A DNA stretch of 64,000 nucleotides from a virus (IMGVR_UViG_2721755712_000001), one strand, 5' to 3'; positions 3,661 through 53,064 are shown, counted from the first letter of the stretch. Notes: generated by a model not told the origin, from the letters alone. Program-made: numbers and translations.

Positions 3661-5728
<2,068 letters not shown>

Positions 5729-44656: not shown

Positions 44657-45178
44657 ATGGTTAAAGACATCACCTACGGCATACCGGCTGAAGTCTGGCC
44701 GCGAGACTACGAACATGCTGAAAACATACTTATGTTCTGGCGGAAGAACAACATTCCTGTAAGAGTCACGCTTGAAGACGGTCAGGTGTTTTGCATGTAC
44801 GTTCAGGGGACAATGCCTTCCCGCAATAAGCTAGATTTATGCCCGCTTCCATATGATAAAGAAAATCGTATAAGACTCCCACTTGAGCGCATTAGCACAA
44901 TTGAATCAGGTGTAATCGATGGCATTGCTCGCGAGTTCAAAGGTAGGCTAACAATACATCCAGACTATGTTGACAATCAGCCATCACGCCGTGACTTTTT
45001 TGCGATATGTCGCAAGGCTTATCAAAACGACCAATCTATAAGGGTCTACATGACAGACGGTCGTGAAATAGAAGGGGTGTCAAGAGGCGTTGATGCTTGC
45101 CAGGTCACTCTTAAGTTAGAAGACGGCAGAAAAATACTTGTTTTCTTCGATTGGGTTGAACGAATCCTTCCATTTTAA
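44657..45178 (+). CDS. hypothetical protein (internal duplication of a ~45-aa segment)
   Basis: 173 aa; two related segments (VRVTLEDGQVFCMYVQG / VTLKLEDGRKILVFFDW). Confidence 0.4.
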   Translation: MVKDITYGIPAEVWPRDYEHAENILMFWRKNNIPVRVTLEDGQVFCMYVQGTMPSRNKLDLCPLPYDKENRIRLPLERISTIESGVIDGIAREFKGRLTIHPDYVDNQPSRRDFFAICRKAYQNDQSIRVYMTDGREIEGVSRGVDACQVTLKLEDGRKILVFFDWVERILPF

Positions 45179-45473
45179 ATCTATAAGGGTAATAACCGGC
45201 TAAGCCCGGTTATTATTTTACATGCCATTCGTTTAAAACTCTTTCAATGTCACTCTGTATAAATATATAAGGTTAAAAGCCCGAATTGATTATTTATTTA
45301 GGGAACACCTTCGACGATCTCGCTTTTATTTCTAGGACTTTCATCCCTGCAGAAAATTTAAAAAAAATACTTGCAATCTTTTTTCACGTATCGATAATTG
45401 AACTCGTCGAAAGCGAGCTAGCTAACGACAGTAAAAAATAAATTCATTTTAATTTTTCGTAAGGATGTCCATC

Positions 45474-46124
45474 ATGACTAACATTATCATTTCTAAAAAG
45501 TCCATCATTGAAGCTGCTGCCATTGTATCCGACGAGCTGCGCGAAAAAGCAGATCTGGCAACTCAAACATATAACGAACATTATAAAAATGGTACGCACA
45601 CAAAAGCAGACAAAGCAAATATGCAAGCTGCAACCACTAAACTTGCTTACTTCATCAACAACGTTGTAAACGCTGTAGAAGACGAAAAATTGTGCTCTGT
45701 TTTCTACTATGCGATCAAAGCAAGCAAACAAGCGCCAGAAGTATTTTTCCGTGATGCAATGACTAATAGTTATTCTCTGGAAAAACTGGTTTATCTGGTT
45801 AAATCCATTAAAGCTGGAAAGTGTGTTTATTCCGTCGCTGATATGTCCGGATCTCGTGTATTCGCATTAATCGATATGATTAACGACGAGATCGACACGT
45901 TCACCAATGGCGCTGTTTTCGATTTAATGAATGAAGCGAAAAAAGCGTGCGAAATTAAATTGGACGCTGGCTATACTCAAGCCAACCAGTTGATCAATCT
46001 TTGCGAACGTCTTGGACTTGTTGAAAAAGTCAAAGGAGCTGGGAGCGCGAAAGCTGGTACTCAGCAATATCGCTTCATTAAAAATGATTTCTATAACTAT
46101 CTGGCTGATGCTTTCAAAGCGTAA
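45474..46124 (+). CDS. hypothetical protein
   Basis: ATG 45474 with AAGGA RBS; sigma70-like promoter upstream (TTGCAA ... CGATAAT near 45370-45395); AT-rich codon usage. Confidence 0.4.
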   Translation: MTNIIISKKSIIEAAAIVSDELREKADLATQTYNEHYKNGTHTKADKANMQAATTKLAYFINNVVNAVEDEKLCSVFYYAIKASKQAPEVFFRDAMTNSYSLEKLVYLVKSIKAGKCVYSVADMSGSRVFALIDMINDEIDTFTNGAVFDLMNEAKKACEIKLDAGYTQANQLINLCERLGLVEKVKGAGSAKAGTQQYRFIKNDFYNYLADAFKA

Positions 46125-46137
46125 TTAATGGAATCTT

Positions 46138-46158
46138 GCGCCCACTATGGGCGCTTTT
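46138..46158 (+). terminator. hairpin terminator GCGCCCA-CTA-TGGGCGC + T-tract (copy 1 of 2 identical)
   Basis: Identical 17-bp hairpin recurs at 46409-46431; the two copies bracket the small gene 46172..46402. Confidence 0.55.
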
Positions 46159-46171
46159 AAGGAGCTTAATC

Positions 46172-46402
46172 ATGTTTATTCTTATCGCTGGCGTTAACGT
46201 ACGTAATGAATATTTTGTCAATCGCATCGCTGGGATCGCTGGTTACGCTGGGCGCGCAGTCGAGTTTATCGATGAAACGACGCGCAAAATTGACTTATTG
46301 AGCGACCAGGAGCGAAAAAAAGCAGACGTGAATGACGCTGATATATTTTTAATGTTAAAAGCGTTTGTAGAAATGGGATTTGAAATCAGTTTACATAAAT
46401 AA
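46172..46402 (+). CDS. small hydrophobic/charged protein (hypothetical)
   Basis: ATG 46172 with AAGGAG RBS; N-terminal hydrophobic segment MFILIAGV; flanked by identical terminators. Confidence 0.35.
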   Translation: MFILIAGVNVRNEYFVNRIAGIAGYAGRAVEFIDETTRKIDLLSDQERKKADVNDADIFLMLKAFVEMGFEISLHK

Positions 46403-46408
46403 AATCGA

Positions 46409-46431
46409 GCGCCCACTATGGGCGCTTTTTT
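46409..46431 (+). terminator. hairpin terminator GCGCCCA-CTA-TGGGCGC + T6 (copy 2)
   Basis: Identical to the 46138-46158 hairpin; further terminator-like hairpins follow at ~46447-46480 and ~46511-46545. Confidence 0.55.
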
Positions 46432-46893
46432 CGTTTCCAATACTTCCACCATAACGCGCCAATGATGGCGCTTTTTTTATTGTCTTTGACTCAAGCCAAC
46501 AACATAAAAATAAGCGCCAAAATAACGCCATAGACGCGCTTTTATATCCTTACCAGTACATACCCATTACTTAGCGCATTAACGCGCTTAAATCGCGTTA
46601 TATTGCGTTATGGTGTATGGTTAATCATTGGCTTTTATTCTTGCTATGTGATCCGCGTTTAATTGTCGGCTCGGATCGGCATTTTGTTTTGTTCCGTATC
46701 CGCTCGCGTATTATGTGCGCGTGATTTTTCACATAATCACACCACTTAATCACATATGTGATTACGCTACGAAAGAAATCTGGATGTCTCAGGCGACGAA
46801 AGTCATCATAATTTTCCCCGCTCACCTGTCCGACAACCGCTGGTTGGATTCCACCAGCTTCCCGATGTTTTTTCTATATAAAGGCGAATGCAG

Positions 46894-47009
46894 CCGTTTC
46901 CCGAAAAAATCCTGGCCGTTTCCCGTCGGCTCATGAATACGTTCCTCGCCGTTTCTGAAAATTTCCCTGCGGCAGCTGGTTGCTATATAGAAAGGGCCGT
47001 TTCTGGCCC
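46894..47009. repeat. iteron-like direct repeat cluster A (CCGTTTCCCGAAAA-type units, ~4 copies)
   Basis: CCGTTTCCCGAAAAAATCC, CCGTTTCCCGTCGG, CCGTTTCTGAAAATTTCCC, CCGTTTCTGGCCC; same unit family as cluster B at 50311-50640. Confidence 0.6.
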
Positions 47010-47018
47010 TCTTCTCAG

Positions 47019-47501
47019 TTACACGCCATCAAGGATGTGGATGCGGTTGCTGGCGTATACATTCAGCATAAAGTTAGCGCAAAACAGTTTCCATGTATCA
47101 ACGCCAGCGGTATACGTAATGTTTTTGCATTTAATCGCATTGTTGGCGATCCGCATCCCCTGCGATACTGCTTCATCGTCGGAAAATTTGAACGACGATT
47201 GAGTTTTAATCCAGACAGAAATCTGCGTAGCGAACTCAATCAGCTTGGACTGGCAGAATCGCCCGGAGCGCACCGGAAAGACGAACGTTCCGAATCCAGA
47301 ATTTACCACATACGCTTTCTCAAATACCCGCGAGTAACGACGATTGCCAATGATGTCGCGTGCAATAATGCATTTTTCTTGTGCTGACAGTTCTACCGTC
47401 TCATTGTCGCGCCATGCACCAAGTACTCGTTTTTCAATGTCAGAGAACGTTACAGCGATATTGCCATGTGCGGGTGCGTTTACAGTAGCGATAAAATTCA
47501 T
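47019..47501 (-). CDS. hypothetical early protein
   Basis: 160 aa; class I promoter/operator upstream; iteron cluster A just downstream. Confidence 0.45.
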   Translation of the reverse strand: MNFIATVNAPAHGNIAVTFSDIEKRVLGAWRDNETVELSAQEKCIIARDIIGNRRYSRVFEKAYVVNSGFGTFVFPVRSGRFCQSKLIEFATQISVWIKTQSSFKFSDDEAVSQGMRIANNAIKCKNITYTAGVDTWKLFCANFMLNVYASNRIHILDGV

Positions 47502-47555: not shown

Positions 47556-47705
47556 TTGTACGAATAAGGCGTCAAAGTGGAAAGTTGCGGTAGCCGGACG
47601 AGAACAGGTGGGTTTGTCGGTTGCCTGGAGGTAAGAGGTTGGTGTTTTTAGCCTGCGGGAAACAGGATGGTCATTTAAGGCCACCAGCATTGGTGGCCTT
47701 AGTCT

Positions 47706-47993
47706 TTAGTGGAGCAGACCGATGTCGATGGTATCCCCTGAATCATCCACACGGATCATCAGCATGGCGAAGGCGTTTAGTGGATAGCTTGCGTGCCATT
47801 CAGGGAAGCGGTCATCTCGCATGAAGTCGGCAATGTCGTAAACGCAGCCCTCAAAGTGGAAGAATCGCGTGCTTACCTGCTCGTCATATTCCACATGATC
47901 CATTTCTTGCTGTTCTGTTTCCGGCAAGTCCAGCCATGATTCAAGGAATACATTTTGTGCTTTAGGGGTAATGGTGAAATCAGTCATGAGCAT
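47706..47993 (-). CDS. small acidic early protein (hypothetical; anti-defence/DNA-mimic candidate)
   Basis: ATG 47991-47993 with GAGGA RBS; 95 aa, strongly acidic; class I promoter upstream. Function is speculative. Confidence 0.45.
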   Translation of the reverse strand: MLMTDFTITPKAQNVFLESWLDLPETEQQEMDHVEYDEQVSTRFFHFEGCVYDIADFMRDDRFPEWHASYPLNAFAMLMIRVDDSGDTIDIGLLH

Positions 47994-48040: not shown

Positions 48041-48322
48041 AGTGTAGATAAGGCATAAAAGAAGTTAATACAGGCTGAATACACAAGAAAGGTTCTGGAA
48101 GTTGATAGCCAGGTTTCAAACTAACCTTCGGTTATTAAAAGTCATTTAAGACCACCAATGCTGGTGGCCTTAATAATTATCGCCCGATTACGCTAAGGAT
48201 CTTTTCCTCAACTGATTTGTTGTTGCGACTAAACTGCCTTGCGTATCTGATGACAGAAGAGGCGTTTTGCTTTCTGACCATCTCGGCTCTTTCCTTCAGG
48301 CGTTTCTTGAAATCGCCCATAT

Positions 48323-50310: not shown

Positions 50311-50640
50311 CCTCTCCCCGAAAACCTACTGAAATCGATTGTGACCCGTTGGCTGTCTGGCACAATTACGCTGTAGCTGGGCATTCAGAGGGAATCCAGC
50401 GGTAAGCAAGTCCGCCTACGTGAGCGCCTCTCTTCTTCCCGCACATTACAGGTGGGTAGCCGCAACTCTCCCTCTCGCTATACCGGTACGCCACCGTTCC
50501 TGAACCGGCATCGAGCCTTCTCCCGAAATCCACACAGGCAACTCGACCGTTTCCCTGAAAACCTCCAGCCGTTCCCCGAAGGCAACCCAGCCGTTTCTGT
50601 AGCGGGATGCAGCCTTTTCCCTGTATGGACCGAAGGCTGA
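50311..50640. repeat. iteron-like direct repeat cluster B (~7 degenerate 22-bp units, consensus CCGTTTCCC-GAAAA...CAGC)
   Basis: e.g. CGTTTCCCTGAAAACCTCCAGC / CGTTCCCCGAAGGCAACCCAGC / CGTTTCTGTAGCGGGATGCAGC in register at 22-bp spacing; non-coding (track ORFs here are low-complexity artefacts). Confidence 0.6.
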
Positions 50641-50779
50641 CCGTAGGGGTGTTACGGGGGATAAAATCAGGAGTTGAATAAATACGAAAAAGGAGGCGAC
50701 ACCCCTCCTTCCCTCTCCACTTATACATACCTGGCTTCTTCGCTATACATGTTGTGTTTTCTTCGTGTTTTATCTGTCT

Positions 50780-51570
50780 CAACCTCTCTATAGGCGTTAA
50801 TGCTCACTCCTTCCAGAACGTTCTATACGGCGACTATTTCTGTTGGTGAATTGGGTGTGTTGTTTTCTCTGTCGGTGTATGTGGTTTCGTTAGTTTTGCG
50901 GTGATTCTTCTATGGGGTGTTCTCGTCGTTTTGGTGATTGTTCTTCTCCGTGTATGGAGTAATGGCAGGTGGGCGATTGCTTTCGTTATTGTGTTTGAGT
51001 TGTTTGTCTGGAGTGTGTGAAAGGCTTTTGTAGTTATTCGTGTATTGGGTAATGGCGTTTCCCGTGATTGTTACGCTTCGTGTCTTTTGGGATTGAGAGA
51101 AACCTTGCGGTTACAGGCTTCGTTGGGGTTTCAGCGGTTCAGGTGTTTCTTCGCTGTTTGGGTAATGGCGTGTCGTGGGTATCGCGCGTATGAATGTTTT
51201 CGGATTGCCTGTGAAAGTTAGGTTGGTTGTCCGGTAGCCTGAGAAGAAGAGGTGGGTCTTTTCGGTAGCCTGCCATAAAGAGGTTGGTTGTTATGGGGAA
51301 TGGCATATGTGTTATTTAGTTGTTTTGTTATAGCTGAAAATAAGTTGTTTATATAGTTATGTAACGCAATGGGAGTGATTTTGAGCGTGTGTTTTTGTTG
51401 GTAGTGTGTTGGGTCGTCTGTGGTGAAAATTGGACGCTGTGGCGCTGTCTGCTGCGTAGAATTACGGGTATAAGAAGTGATGTGTGAATACGTCAATTTT
51501 TTAGACCAAATCGGGTGAAAGCGTTGACGTTTCGTTGATCTGTTATTTAGTTGTTTTCTTATTGGTATAA
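50780..51570. repeat. GT-skewed non-coding tract (~800 bp) with several degenerate direct-repeat families
   Basis: Plus strand almost only G/T; repeated GGGTAATGGCG-type units (50951, 51041, 51150, 51290), CGGTAGCCTG x2 (51230-51275), TGTTATTTAGTTGTTTT x2 (51311, 51541); no credible ORF. Confidence 0.6.
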
Positions 51571-51703
51571 ACAACGTTAACCTATTGATATTTAAAGGTG
51601 TGATTGCAGGTATGGAAGAAGAGTAGTGGCGATCAACGGATTCTTATAGAAAAGAATCAAATTGTGACCGCCATTATCAACTGATTGATTAAGCTAATTA
51701 CAC

Positions 51704-52894
51704 TCAAACATCCCCGTTCTTAATCCACTGCCTGACTTGCTCGTCTTGTGCGACTTCTTTCTCATGTTTGGCAATATACAAGTCTGGCAATAGGGGTGGA
51801 GCGAATTCAGGCTCTGTCGCACGCCACTTTTCATATGCGTCACGCATGGATTTCTCAACATTCCAATGCTCCAACTCTTGGTATTCAATCGGCCAGTTAT
51901 CCTGCAATCTCTTCACTGCATTAGCCAGGTCGTATCGGAAGTAAGGATTAAGACCAATGAAATTACCAGCCAGCATGTCATCAACCTCCTTCACTCTGGC
52001 AATCTTAGAAAACTTACCAATAGCAATGTTGAGGTCCCAATCTGACACGAACAACAAAAGTGCTGCAAATGCCAGAAACTTAGCTTCCCCGTATGCTCTG
52101 TCGCTAACCGTTTTTGTCTGAAACTCAATGTAATTGCCCATCACAAAACTAGTAAGCTTACAGGTCTTACTTATCTCGTCCTCCAAATGCGATGGATCGA
52201 GAATTGTGCGGTCACGATTATTGTTTATGTGTTCTAAGATTACAGCAATGTCTCTATGTGAGACTGAAATTTCACGCAATTGCTGGAGAGTCTTGATGTG
52301 AACTCTTAGCACCTCTTTGTCAATCGCACGCTTCCAAGAAAAACCAGGCACAGTAACCTGAATGGGCGCGAAAGGTAGAATATCAGGAGTTGTCCATGCT
52401 AGATATGCATCACGTAACCCACTAATATAATAAAGCCAGTCTAAATGCTCGCTTTCTAACCATATTTCAAATGTGGAATCCTTTCGCTTATTGAAGAACC
52501 ATTCCCTCATCTGCCACATTTTTTCTTGAGTAAATATCCCTTCCTGTATGCCGGCACAGACCAGCTTTCGTATTACCTGCGAATACTTTGTTCGATCTTT
52601 TGTGAATGAGACAAGGTGCTGCTTCACCTCAGATGTTAGTCTATCTCCATAGAAATCACATGATGGATGATGGCCTTGACCATCTTCACCGGTAAATCTG
52701 AAATGCGCCTTCTTGTGATAGCCACCATTCCTAGTGGCTCTAACGAACGAACCACCTCCAACTTTGCAAATGGGGCAGATGATATCGTCACGGGCAATAG
52801 CATGAACCGAGCTGTCATCTAAATTCTTTAGCGCCAAGTACTGCTCAGGATCGACTTCTTTTTGTAACGATTTTGAAAAAGCGGTATCAGTCAT
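51704..52894 (-). CDS. hypothetical protein with N-terminal Cys/His zinc-ribbon-like motif (candidate replication initiator or DNA-binding protein)
   Basis: CPICK...HHPSC cluster near N-terminus; ~396 aa from ATG 52892-52894 (GGAG RBS); directly adjacent to the iteron/GT-rich region. Function inferred from context only. Confidence 0.45.
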   Translation of the reverse strand: MTDTAFSKSLQKEVDPEQYLALKNLDDSSVHAIARDDIICPICKVGGGSFVRATRNGGYHKKAHFRFTGEDGQGHHPSCDFYGDRLTSEVKQHLVSFTKDRTKYSQVIRKLVCAGIQEGIFTQEKMWQMREWFFNKRKDSTFEIWLESEHLDWLYYISGLRDAYLAWTTPDILPFAPIQVTVPGFSWKRAIDKEVLRVHIKTLQQLREISVSHRDIAVILEHINNNRDRTILDPSHLEDEISKTCKLTSFVMGNYIEFQTKTVSDRAYGEAKFLAFAALLLFVSDWDLNIAIGKFSKIARVKEVDDMLAGNFIGLNPYFRYDLANAVKRLQDNWPIEYQELEHWNVEKSMRDAYEKWRATEPEFAPPLLPDLYIAKHEKEVAQDEQVRQWIKNGDV

Positions 52895-53064
52895 TCCAAG
52901 CTCCGAGCAAGGGGTTATTTGTTCAATTATCATTCGGAATTATTTACTGTCTCGCCCAGTTTCACGTCATTTTATTCCCTAGTCTAGCTTTTCTAGGGTA
53001 TACAGCTTATTACAAGCTCCTCATTATTAACTGTTTCCGTAACTCATTGATCCGCTTATACACT

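Follow-up and report, generated by a model that had tools for sequence, protein, structure and literature searches.

Repeated terminator-like hairpins as probable boundaries of small gene cassettes in an SSU5-family phage-plasmid

The question raised by a repeated hairpin

What does a short hairpin do when it is repeated exactly on either side of a tiny gene, at the point where two opposed gene blocks of a mobile element meet? We address this question in a stretch of viral DNA of 64,000 nucleotides (IMGVR_UViG_2721755712_000001; hereafter the window, with positions counted from its first letter), which its sequence assigns to the SSU5/pHCM2/pMT1 family of phage-plasmids. Over 45.4-47.6 kb, the window shares 97.7% identity with Escherichia phage Cyrano (pLF82, from E. 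coli LF82) and about 81% with Salmonella phage SSU5. This segment matches 737 plasmid records, whose hosts include Klebsiella, Escherichia, Enterobacter, Yersinia (pMT1), Salmonella (pHCM2), Citrobacter, and others; a count of plasmid records with the region gives 783. Among complete E. coli genomes, 238 of 5,426 have it, always on a plasmid.

An earlier note, made from the sequence alone, had described two identical terminator hairpins around an insulated small gene, followed by more hairpins, candidate small RNA genes, and an operator-like palindrome. We find that the repeats directly follow stop codons, that the genes enclosed by them vary among relatives, that empty sites keep a single hairpin, that the T-tracts follow a regular pattern, and that a second hairpin family behaves alike. 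We consider it probable that the hairpins are duplicated intrinsic terminators at a zone of convergent transcription, and that they are also recombination boundaries for small gene cassettes.

A 17-nt hairpin with terminator character

The hairpin is formed by a 17-mer, GCGCCCACTATGGGCGC, which occurs exactly at 46138-46154 and 46409-46425 and at no other site in the window (0 of 100 shuffles reach this count). The features of the repeated unit and of the gene that it encloses (lengths of proteins in amino acids, aa) are:

46138-46158, plus strand: hairpin copy 1 (GCGCCCA-CTA-TGGGCGC) with a T4 tail; -13.2 kcal/mol; 13 nt past the stop codon of a 219-aa gene.
46160-46402, plus strand: ribosome-binding site AAGGAG (46160-46165) and 76-aa gene 46172-46402 (phrog_1585, E 3e-38), the cassette cargo in the window.
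46409-46431, plus strand: hairpin copy 2 with a T6 tract; -15.5 kcal/mol, z -3.65; stem of 7-9 bp.
46456-46478, plus strand: hairpin 3 (GCGCCA-ATGA-TGGCGC) with a T7 tract; 6-bp stem at 46456-46471; -10.7 kcal/mol, z -3.0.

The identity previously noted for hairpin and T-tract together holds for the 17-mer, which is exact in both copies. The tails are unequal, with TTTT then A behind copy 1 and TTTTTT then C behind copy 2, and identity is therefore limited to the hairpin. Both copies lie at the 3' end of a transcription unit. Specifically, copy 1 keeps its 13-nt offset from the 219-aa stop codon in 14 of the 14 plasmid and phage relatives whose loci we compared in detail, and copy 2 begins 6 nt past the stop codon of the 76-aa gene and is called terminator-like on both strands. 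The GC stem of about 5-14 bp and the U-tract typical of intrinsic terminators are present in copy 2 and hairpin 3, and weakly so in copy 1 (T4). From these features, copy 2 is predicted to be a canonical intrinsic terminator and the right boundary of the cassette, and its palindrome could stop minus-strand transcripts as well. Copy 1 would be the left boundary, and probably acts as an attenuator or as a terminator with some leakage.

The T-tract pattern is consistent among relatives. The tail behind the last copy, TTTTTTCGTTTC, is essentially invariant in the 14 relatives, and the 8 nt after the last hairpin hold five to seven T in all 69 distinct relatives (earlier copies, two to seven). Hairpin 3 has an invariant stem and a free loop (ATGA, TTGA, TTGT, ACAA, TAGT, or TCAT), and in three loci (L044, L083, and L116) an exact third 17-mer lies about 47 bp past the second copy, behind a similar T-tract. 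We read hairpin 3 as a putative back-up terminator and diverged paralogue of a hairpin unit of about 46 bp, with the caveat that these three loci do not align with the window at this point. The cluster of further GC hairpins with T-runs reported at 46440-46620 is reduced to hairpin 3: the segment has no conserved open reading frame (ORF), as had been stated, and its other GC clusters are unstable or unconserved, with those at 46500-46700 folding no better than shuffles.

The 17-mer is, on the sequences surveyed, specific to the SSU5-type family. In 596 Gb of reference genomes, two copies are found only in SSU5-type contigs (plus one overlapping pair), and the 80-odd single 17-mers, mostly in unrelated bacteria, are about the number estimated for chance. 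The 3-nt loop reads CTA in 114 copies and is inverted to TAG in 15 (15/139 copies flipped), the flip to be expected when a stem is perfectly palindromic.

The hairpins stand where the gene blocks converge, between the following features:

45465-46124, plus strand: 219-aa gene (phrog_1513, no assigned function), always upstream of hairpin copy 1.
46985-47012, minus strand: terminator hairpin of the convergent 160-aa gene; -14.7 kcal/mol, z -3.1.
47019-47501, minus strand: 160-aa gene (phrog_1641), with which the minus-strand block ends.

Plus-strand genes stop at 46402 and the minus-strand 160-aa gene, with its own hairpin, terminates at 47019. The earlier note had placed here a boundary between plus-strand accessory genes and a minus-strand early block, and as a boundary between strands it stands. 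The hairpin at 46985-47012 shows compensatory stem changes among relatives, its pair types being GC, CG, GU, and AU.

Gene content between hairpin copies varies among relatives

The small gene between the two copies is real: besides its AAGGAG site and its phrog_1585 match, it is annotated in Cyrano (CYRAN_112). The same family includes the 75-aa gene of pMT1 and pHCM2, and in some relatives a 67-aa phrog_6145 gene replaces or joins the phrog_1585 gene. A scan of IMG/VR with the 17-mer returned 104 loci, nearly all homologous to the region, with about 70 distinct architectures and one to three hairpin copies per relative at this one locus.

The distance between hairpins follows their content. 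A 231-nt gene, with a spacing of 271/274, is carried by the window, Cyrano, S56, and JH51; a 204-nt gene (phrog_6145; spacing 247) by SSU5, Enterobacter, and Klebsiella; and a 228-nt phrog_1585 gene (spacing 307) by pMT1, pHCM2, and Citrobacter. Both genes together occupy the slot in pECAZ155_2 and A320 (spacing about 496), and a spacing of 270+271 marks two diverged phrog_1585 paralogues with the hairpin and an identical ribosome-binding site before each. Duplicated cassettes are found in loci L042 and L093, and spacings of 44-48 bp correspond to gene-less tandem hairpins, up to three in a row. In K. pneumoniae HKC1, an insertion sequence (IS), IS5, lies between the copies (L005, 861-1829). 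At the other end of this range, the site in Buttiauxella is empty, with exactly one hairpin and no cargo.

These comparisons bear out the view of the small gene as an insulated cassette. The check proposed for it, presence or absence in related elements, returns both filled and empty states, with one hairpin left when the slot is empty, and the same is seen at a second pair of hairpins in the window. This unrelated hairpin, AAGGCCACCA-GCAT-TGGTGGCCTT, is located at 47675-47702 (core 47677-47700) and, with its loop flipped, at 48146-48173 (core 48148-48171), and the pair brackets a 93-aa gene (47706-47987). In the E. coli plasmid S56 (EcS56), a segment of exactly 471 bp is missing, one hairpin is present, and the flanks are identical to the outer flanks in the window. 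Given this empty site, the two hairpin families share the same two states, i.e. hairpin-cargo-hairpin or a single hairpin.

Proposed mechanism and its counter-evidence

We infer the following course of events, including the efficiency of termination and the mechanism of recombination. The 17-nt hairpin would be the core of a short intergenic unit, of which SSU5-family phage-plasmids carry one to three copies at the 3' end of their rightward operon. At the RNA level, the last copy (T6) and hairpin 3 (T7) would form tandem intrinsic terminators that halt plus-strand transcription ahead of the convergent minus-strand block. Copy 1 would let part of the transcripts through to the small gene behind it, because its U-tract is short or absent. 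At the DNA level, the identical copies would be substrates for recombination or replication slippage, through which the enclosed small genes may be gained, lost, or duplicated; each tiny gene would therefore be a hairpin-bounded cassette, and loss of the cargo would leave one hairpin behind.

Several observations weigh against this explanation. The 7+7 stem is kept in 172 copies from 92 distinct relatives, among which the upstream protein is 48-100% identical, and the five stem variants found in total include none that is compensatory. The neighboring minus-strand terminator (46985-47012) does covary, and a terminator of purely structural function should drift likewise. The hairpin of copy 1 is also kept where its tail is not T-rich (GCGCTTATTCAAA and GCGCTATAAAGGA). 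Finally, the loss of the 204-nt gene in the window maps to repeated AAGGAGCTT ribosome-binding sites and not to hairpins, and the hairpins are therefore not the sole breakpoints. Overall, termination combined with cassette exchange leaves unaccounted for both the invariance of the hairpin and a pair of iteron-like arrays in the surrounding DNA.

Putative cis-acting sites to the right of the hairpins

Between the hairpins and the 160-aa gene lies a noncoding gap of about 560 bp, which contains two groups of repeated motifs:

46648-46764, no strand assigned: GTGATY cluster, including an 18-bp palindrome (46747-46764) and the core TTCACATAATCACA (46728-46741).
46857-47010, plus strand: array A, repeat aGCCGTTTCCCgaaa at 46892, 46914, 46947, and 46995, plus a degenerate unit at about 46857; in the noncoding gap, to the right of the span covered by the earlier note.

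Array A yields five matches vs 0.46 expected. A second group, array B (50514-50626), holds about five aGCCGTTTCCCgaaa repeats in the same orientation 3.6 kb away, and a scan with a position-weight matrix finds no further cluster in the window or in another 47 kb of Cyrano. Spacings include 22 and 33 bp in array A, and are 22, 22, and 22 bp in array B. The arrays flank a block of small minus-strand genes, each just past a minus-strand terminator, and a comparison of the two reveals no similarity besides the iterons. Array A is kept in all relatives, both arrays are present in SSU5, and EcA320 has gained one extra exact 22-bp unit in array A.

The arrays look like phased, putative protein-binding sites, and a pair of the ori/crr type, or a looping pair, is possible. 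We therefore weighed, as a tentative possibility that we place well below the terminator-cassette explanation, that proteins read the noncoding region as a cis-acting DNA element, e.g. a lytic origin or a looping/handcuffing site, with the arrays and the GTGATY motifs as putative binding sites. Such an element would lie to the right of the hairpins and could coexist with their proposed role as terminators and cassette boundaries. The two same-orientation five-repeat arrays, mostly phased at 22 bp and the sole clusters found, speak for it, as do their joint presence in SSU5, the gain of an exact unit in one relative, the density of GTGATY, and the conservation of the region as short sequence blocks with variable spacers. 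The direct, helically phased repeats of an iteron origin are indeed found in array A. However, the region lacks the adjacent initiator gene, AT-rich element, and DnaA boxes of such an origin: neither a Rep-like family nor a Rep-like fold is seen among the neighbors, no initiator or binding protein was identified, and the adjacent 160-aa protein has no recognizable fold. Reading by eye, we saw no marked AT-rich unwinding element, no conserved DnaA box, and no enrichment of GATC; a single DnaA-box-like site, TTTTTCACA (46725-46733), is lineage-specific. In addition, array B is lost in pMT1, and in some pMT1 plasmids the region contains an IS.

Other candidates for the region were rejected. The arrays are not RepA iterons, because RepA is 38 kb away, and the matrix finds nothing near RepA. 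A P1-type parS was considered because GCGCCA hexamers are abundant, but P1-family parS sites lie directly downstream of parB (PMC10999674), and here we find neither a neighboring P1-type parB nor the box A heptamer. A Xer/dif-like site, a sigma-54 promoter, an IHF site, DnaA boxes, and a P1-like pac gave only partial matches by eye, unconserved across lineages. We found no description of the region in the literature on the origins of SSU5, pHCM2, and pMT1, and nothing relevant for its exact sequences.

The GTGATY cluster is the densest of its kind in the window, with five sites within 46648-46763 vs 0.15 expected per 120 bp. The nested inverted repeats reported at 46721-46768 are confirmed, since the cluster contains a perfect 18-mer palindrome, TAATCACATATGTGATTA, at 46747-46764, unique in the window and folding at -6.1 kcal/mol. 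Their interpretation as a repressor operator fares less well. Of about 27 distinct sequences in the window's lineage, about 6 have the perfect palindrome, and most carry an imperfect CACGTATGTG; other lineages lack the palindrome and have only the core TTCACATAATCACA in common, some without even that, and several show unrelated small hairpins at the same position. What would mark a repressor operator, i.e. a conserved inverted repeat over a promoter with further copies, is not what we see: the palindrome is lineage-specific and mostly imperfect, has no second copy in the window, and overlaps no promoter. The case for a classical operator is weak.

In the SSU5, pMT1, and Klebsiella lineages, four to five repeats centered on ACGTG/CACGT (GCGTGATCG, GACGTGATCC, GGGACGTGTCGGC, and GCGACGTGTACGC) take the place of GTGATY (SSU5, L003, 6217-6320, and relatives), with 5 sites in 635 bp vs 0.9 expected.

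The DNA around array B has features of its own. The segment 50153-51703 comprises 1.5 kb without a credible ORF and without an Rfam match, in which Cyrano annotates two doubtful coding sequences (CYRAN_103 and CYRAN_104), and the plus strand is strongly rich in G+T over 50730-51580. We find the motif TAATGGC at 50960, 51050, and 51163, the last two inside GGGTAATGGCG, and a variant, GAATGGC, at about 51300. The minus-strand gene that comes next (51704-52933) encodes 409 aa and has no Pfam match.

The palindromic hairpin as a possible protein-binding site

Invariance of the stem without covariation, next to a terminator that does covary, is what one would expect if the 17-bp perfect palindrome were primarily a DNA site recognized by its sequence (an operator or a centromere-like repeat, for instance), with termination secondary. 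We consider this unlikely. Its binder would be a dimer, most simply the protein phrog_1513 encoded directly upstream, whose C-terminal ~90 residues form a predicted winged-helix domain. Persistence of the hairpin behind tails that are not T-rich also fits a DNA site, as do the tolerated inversion of the loop, expected of a symmetric site, and the tandem arrays of 2-3 copies at 44-48 bp. The position right after stop codons and the invariant T-tract of the last copy are, however, hallmarks of terminators. Moreover, a Foldseek search with the predicted phrog_1513 structure gave no match at E <= 0.001, and a winged helix alone proves neither DNA binding nor specificity.

Expression data also bear on this alternative. 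In gene-level RNA sequencing (RNA-seq) of LF82, the plus-strand genes CYRAN_112 and CYRAN_113 are at background in the Cyrano lysogen, and CYRAN_111 is slightly higher (PMC9928086, supplementary table). Both genes are thus silent in the lysogen, so the phrog_1513 protein would be absent there, e.g. for plasmid maintenance. We give a similarly low chance to the broader proposal that the palindrome is the predicted recognition site of phrog_1513 and, together with the 560-bp zone and the twin arrays (46.9 and 50.5 kb), makes up an undescribed cis-acting module for control or replication. Such a module could serve as a lytic origin that has a distant partner site, or could hold the small-gene operon in a loop bridged by protein.

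Candidate small RNAs and the conserved noncoding gap

Across genera, the gap retains about 66% identity. It is without annotation in every record examined, except for an occasional small hypothetical ORF, and we found no conserved ORF in it, as reading frames break between relatives. For example, a 50-aa frame from the ATG at 46784, which PGAP annotates in some cases, was rejected because it is broken even among close relatives. Two further features lie in its left part:

46505-46529, minus strand: weak terminator-like site facing hairpin 3, in the same place in SSU5; its block AAAAATAAGCGCCA is strongly conserved.
46556-46570, no strand assigned: conserved block GTACATACCCATTAC, kept across genera, with an enclosing stem only in some lineages.

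Conservation over some 560 bp without a conserved ORF would be consistent with a gap (46440-46990) that encodes one or more small or 3'-untranslated-region-derived RNAs, e.g. a minus-strand RNA ending at 46529-46505, or gives rise to a read-through RNA at that weak site, yet we regard this as improbable. The terminator-like minus-strand sites are in matching places in the window and SSU5, and a GAAA-loop hairpin near 46766-46782 keeps its pairing through G-U changes on the plus strand of other lineages. This hairpin and the stem around GTACATACCCATTAC are, however, absent from the window's lineage. The block GTACATACCCATTAC is kept across genera though its stem is found in some lineages only, and it is therefore the sequence that is conserved and not the structure. 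The site at 46529-46505 folds no better than shuffles (z -0.45 for 46529-46513).

Searches for the hallmarks of a small RNA gene gave little. Rfam, at E <= 1, returned two chance-level matches only over 45.0-48.5 kb and 49.5-52.5 kb. Counts of sigma-70-like promoters are not above those of shuffles, and the one site in the window and the one in SSU5 differ in place and strand. Consensus folding of the whole gap on both strands reveals, beyond the terminator hairpins, only small or lineage-restricted helices (column-shuffle z-scores are inflated here by the palindromes), so that the RNA structure and covariance check suggested earlier finds no helix conserved across lineages apart from those hairpins. 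In Y. pestis, size-selected RNA-seq detected pMT1 small RNAs only at 98.1 and 105.8 kb and none in the homologous segment at 36.0-36.6 kb (PMC3770706), and several Y. pestis strains carry IS1541 within the conserved gap, e.g. the Pestoides F pMT (L122, about 700-1400). The combination of promoter, terminator, and conserved structure or known family that identifies bacterial small RNA genes was thus not found, and the small RNA genes proposed at 46440-46620 are not supported: that segment has no Rfam match, no conserved promoter, and no reported pMT1 counterpart, and its hairpin 3 is best read as a diverged terminator unit.

Least probable is a role of the hairpin beside the ribosome-binding site as an RNA operator, through which an FljA-like protein, encoded two genes upstream (44657-45178), would control translation of the small genes. 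This 173-aa protein has a PF03614 match (E 1e-80) and a faint Hfq-like signal, the target of FljA is the 5' untranslated region of fliC mRNA, and copy 1 ends 5 nt ahead of AAGGAG, but the last copies and the gene-less tandem copies have no ribosome-binding site behind them, the RNA loop changes from CUA to UAG in the 15 inverted copies, and nothing connects the FljA-like protein with the hairpin. Such a role is less likely than a DNA-binding role of the palindrome. The FljA homologue (FljA being the repressor of phase-1 flagellin) is itself kept across the family, Y. pestis pMT1 included.

Relation to described systems and significance

Intrinsic terminators in tandem or bidirectional form are a general feature of convergent operon ends in bacteria and phages. 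The locus resembles them in its GC stems with T-tracts after stop codons, its back-up hairpin, and the opposite-strand terminator that it faces. It differs in that ordinary terminators drift via compensatory changes, as at 46985-47012, whereas the 17-mer hairpin is invariant in 172 copies. Morons, as known from lambdoid phages, are genes with their own promoter and terminator inserted between two genes, and are typically expressed from the prophage. The cassette shares with them a small extra gene between conserved neighbors, terminator-ended and variably present; unlike a moron, it has no detected promoter of its own and shows background expression in the Cyrano lysogen.

For arrays A and B only, phage P4 offers an analogy. 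Its ori/crr system consists of two clusters of one iteron several kb apart, both required in cis. Here, too, a phage-plasmid has two same-orientation clusters of a short repeat, separated by a few kb. The repeat is unrelated, however, and no gene for an alpha-type primase-helicase stands beside the arrays, so the likeness is one of analogy and not of membership.

The closest described system is that of the PeSL (promoter-early stem-loop) of T4-type phages, repeated promoter plus stem-loop motifs that flank orphan genes and mediate modular shuffling, with recombination among copies accounting for the gain, loss, and replacement of sequence between close relatives (Arbiol et al. 2010, PMC2839356; Comeau et al. 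2014, PMC4122927). The PeSL carry a strong sigma-70-like early promoter and number about 50 copies over hyperplastic regions (PMC2839356, PMC4122927). In both systems, repeated intergenic stem-loop terminator motifs stand beside small genes of no known function, and indels between relatives are bounded by the repeats (here in Buttiauxella, EcS56, and the duplications L042 and L093). By contrast, the 35-nt unit repeated here consists of the hairpin and its flanks only, without a promoter (promoter counts are below those of shuffles). There are two exact copies in the window and one to three per relative at one locus, and not about 50 scattered ones; the 17-mer is invariant in sequence across genera; and the host element is a temperate, siphovirus-type phage-plasmid. 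The element is not a PeSL, because it lacks a promoter and is confined to 1-3 copies at one locus. We would describe it as a set of promoter-less, locus-restricted terminator repeats that appear to serve as cassette boundaries.

Clinical Enterobacteriaceae widely carry phage-plasmids of the SSU5/pHCM2/pMT1 type. Terminator repeats marking the points at which tiny genes come and go would provide a simple, checkable rule for their small-scale mosaicism, and would extend the PeSL idea, minus the promoter, from lytic T4-type phages to a temperate phage-plasmid. If the invariant hairpin and the arrays are truly protein-binding sites, they would mark an undescribed origin or control region, useful for typing, curing, and engineering.

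Flanking genes and further observations

The proteins that flank the locus are poorly matched in structural resources. Sequence searches of a solved-structure library with both the 219-aa and the 160-aa protein found nothing, and the AlphaFold2 model of the 160-aa protein (mean pLDDT 85.9) had no meaningful fold match. Elsewhere in the window, an IS21-type pair is present at 3861-5662, encoding a transposase of 340 aa (rve domain) and an IstB ATPase of 260 aa (E 8e-112), and this copy of the phage-plasmid therefore carries an insertion sequence.

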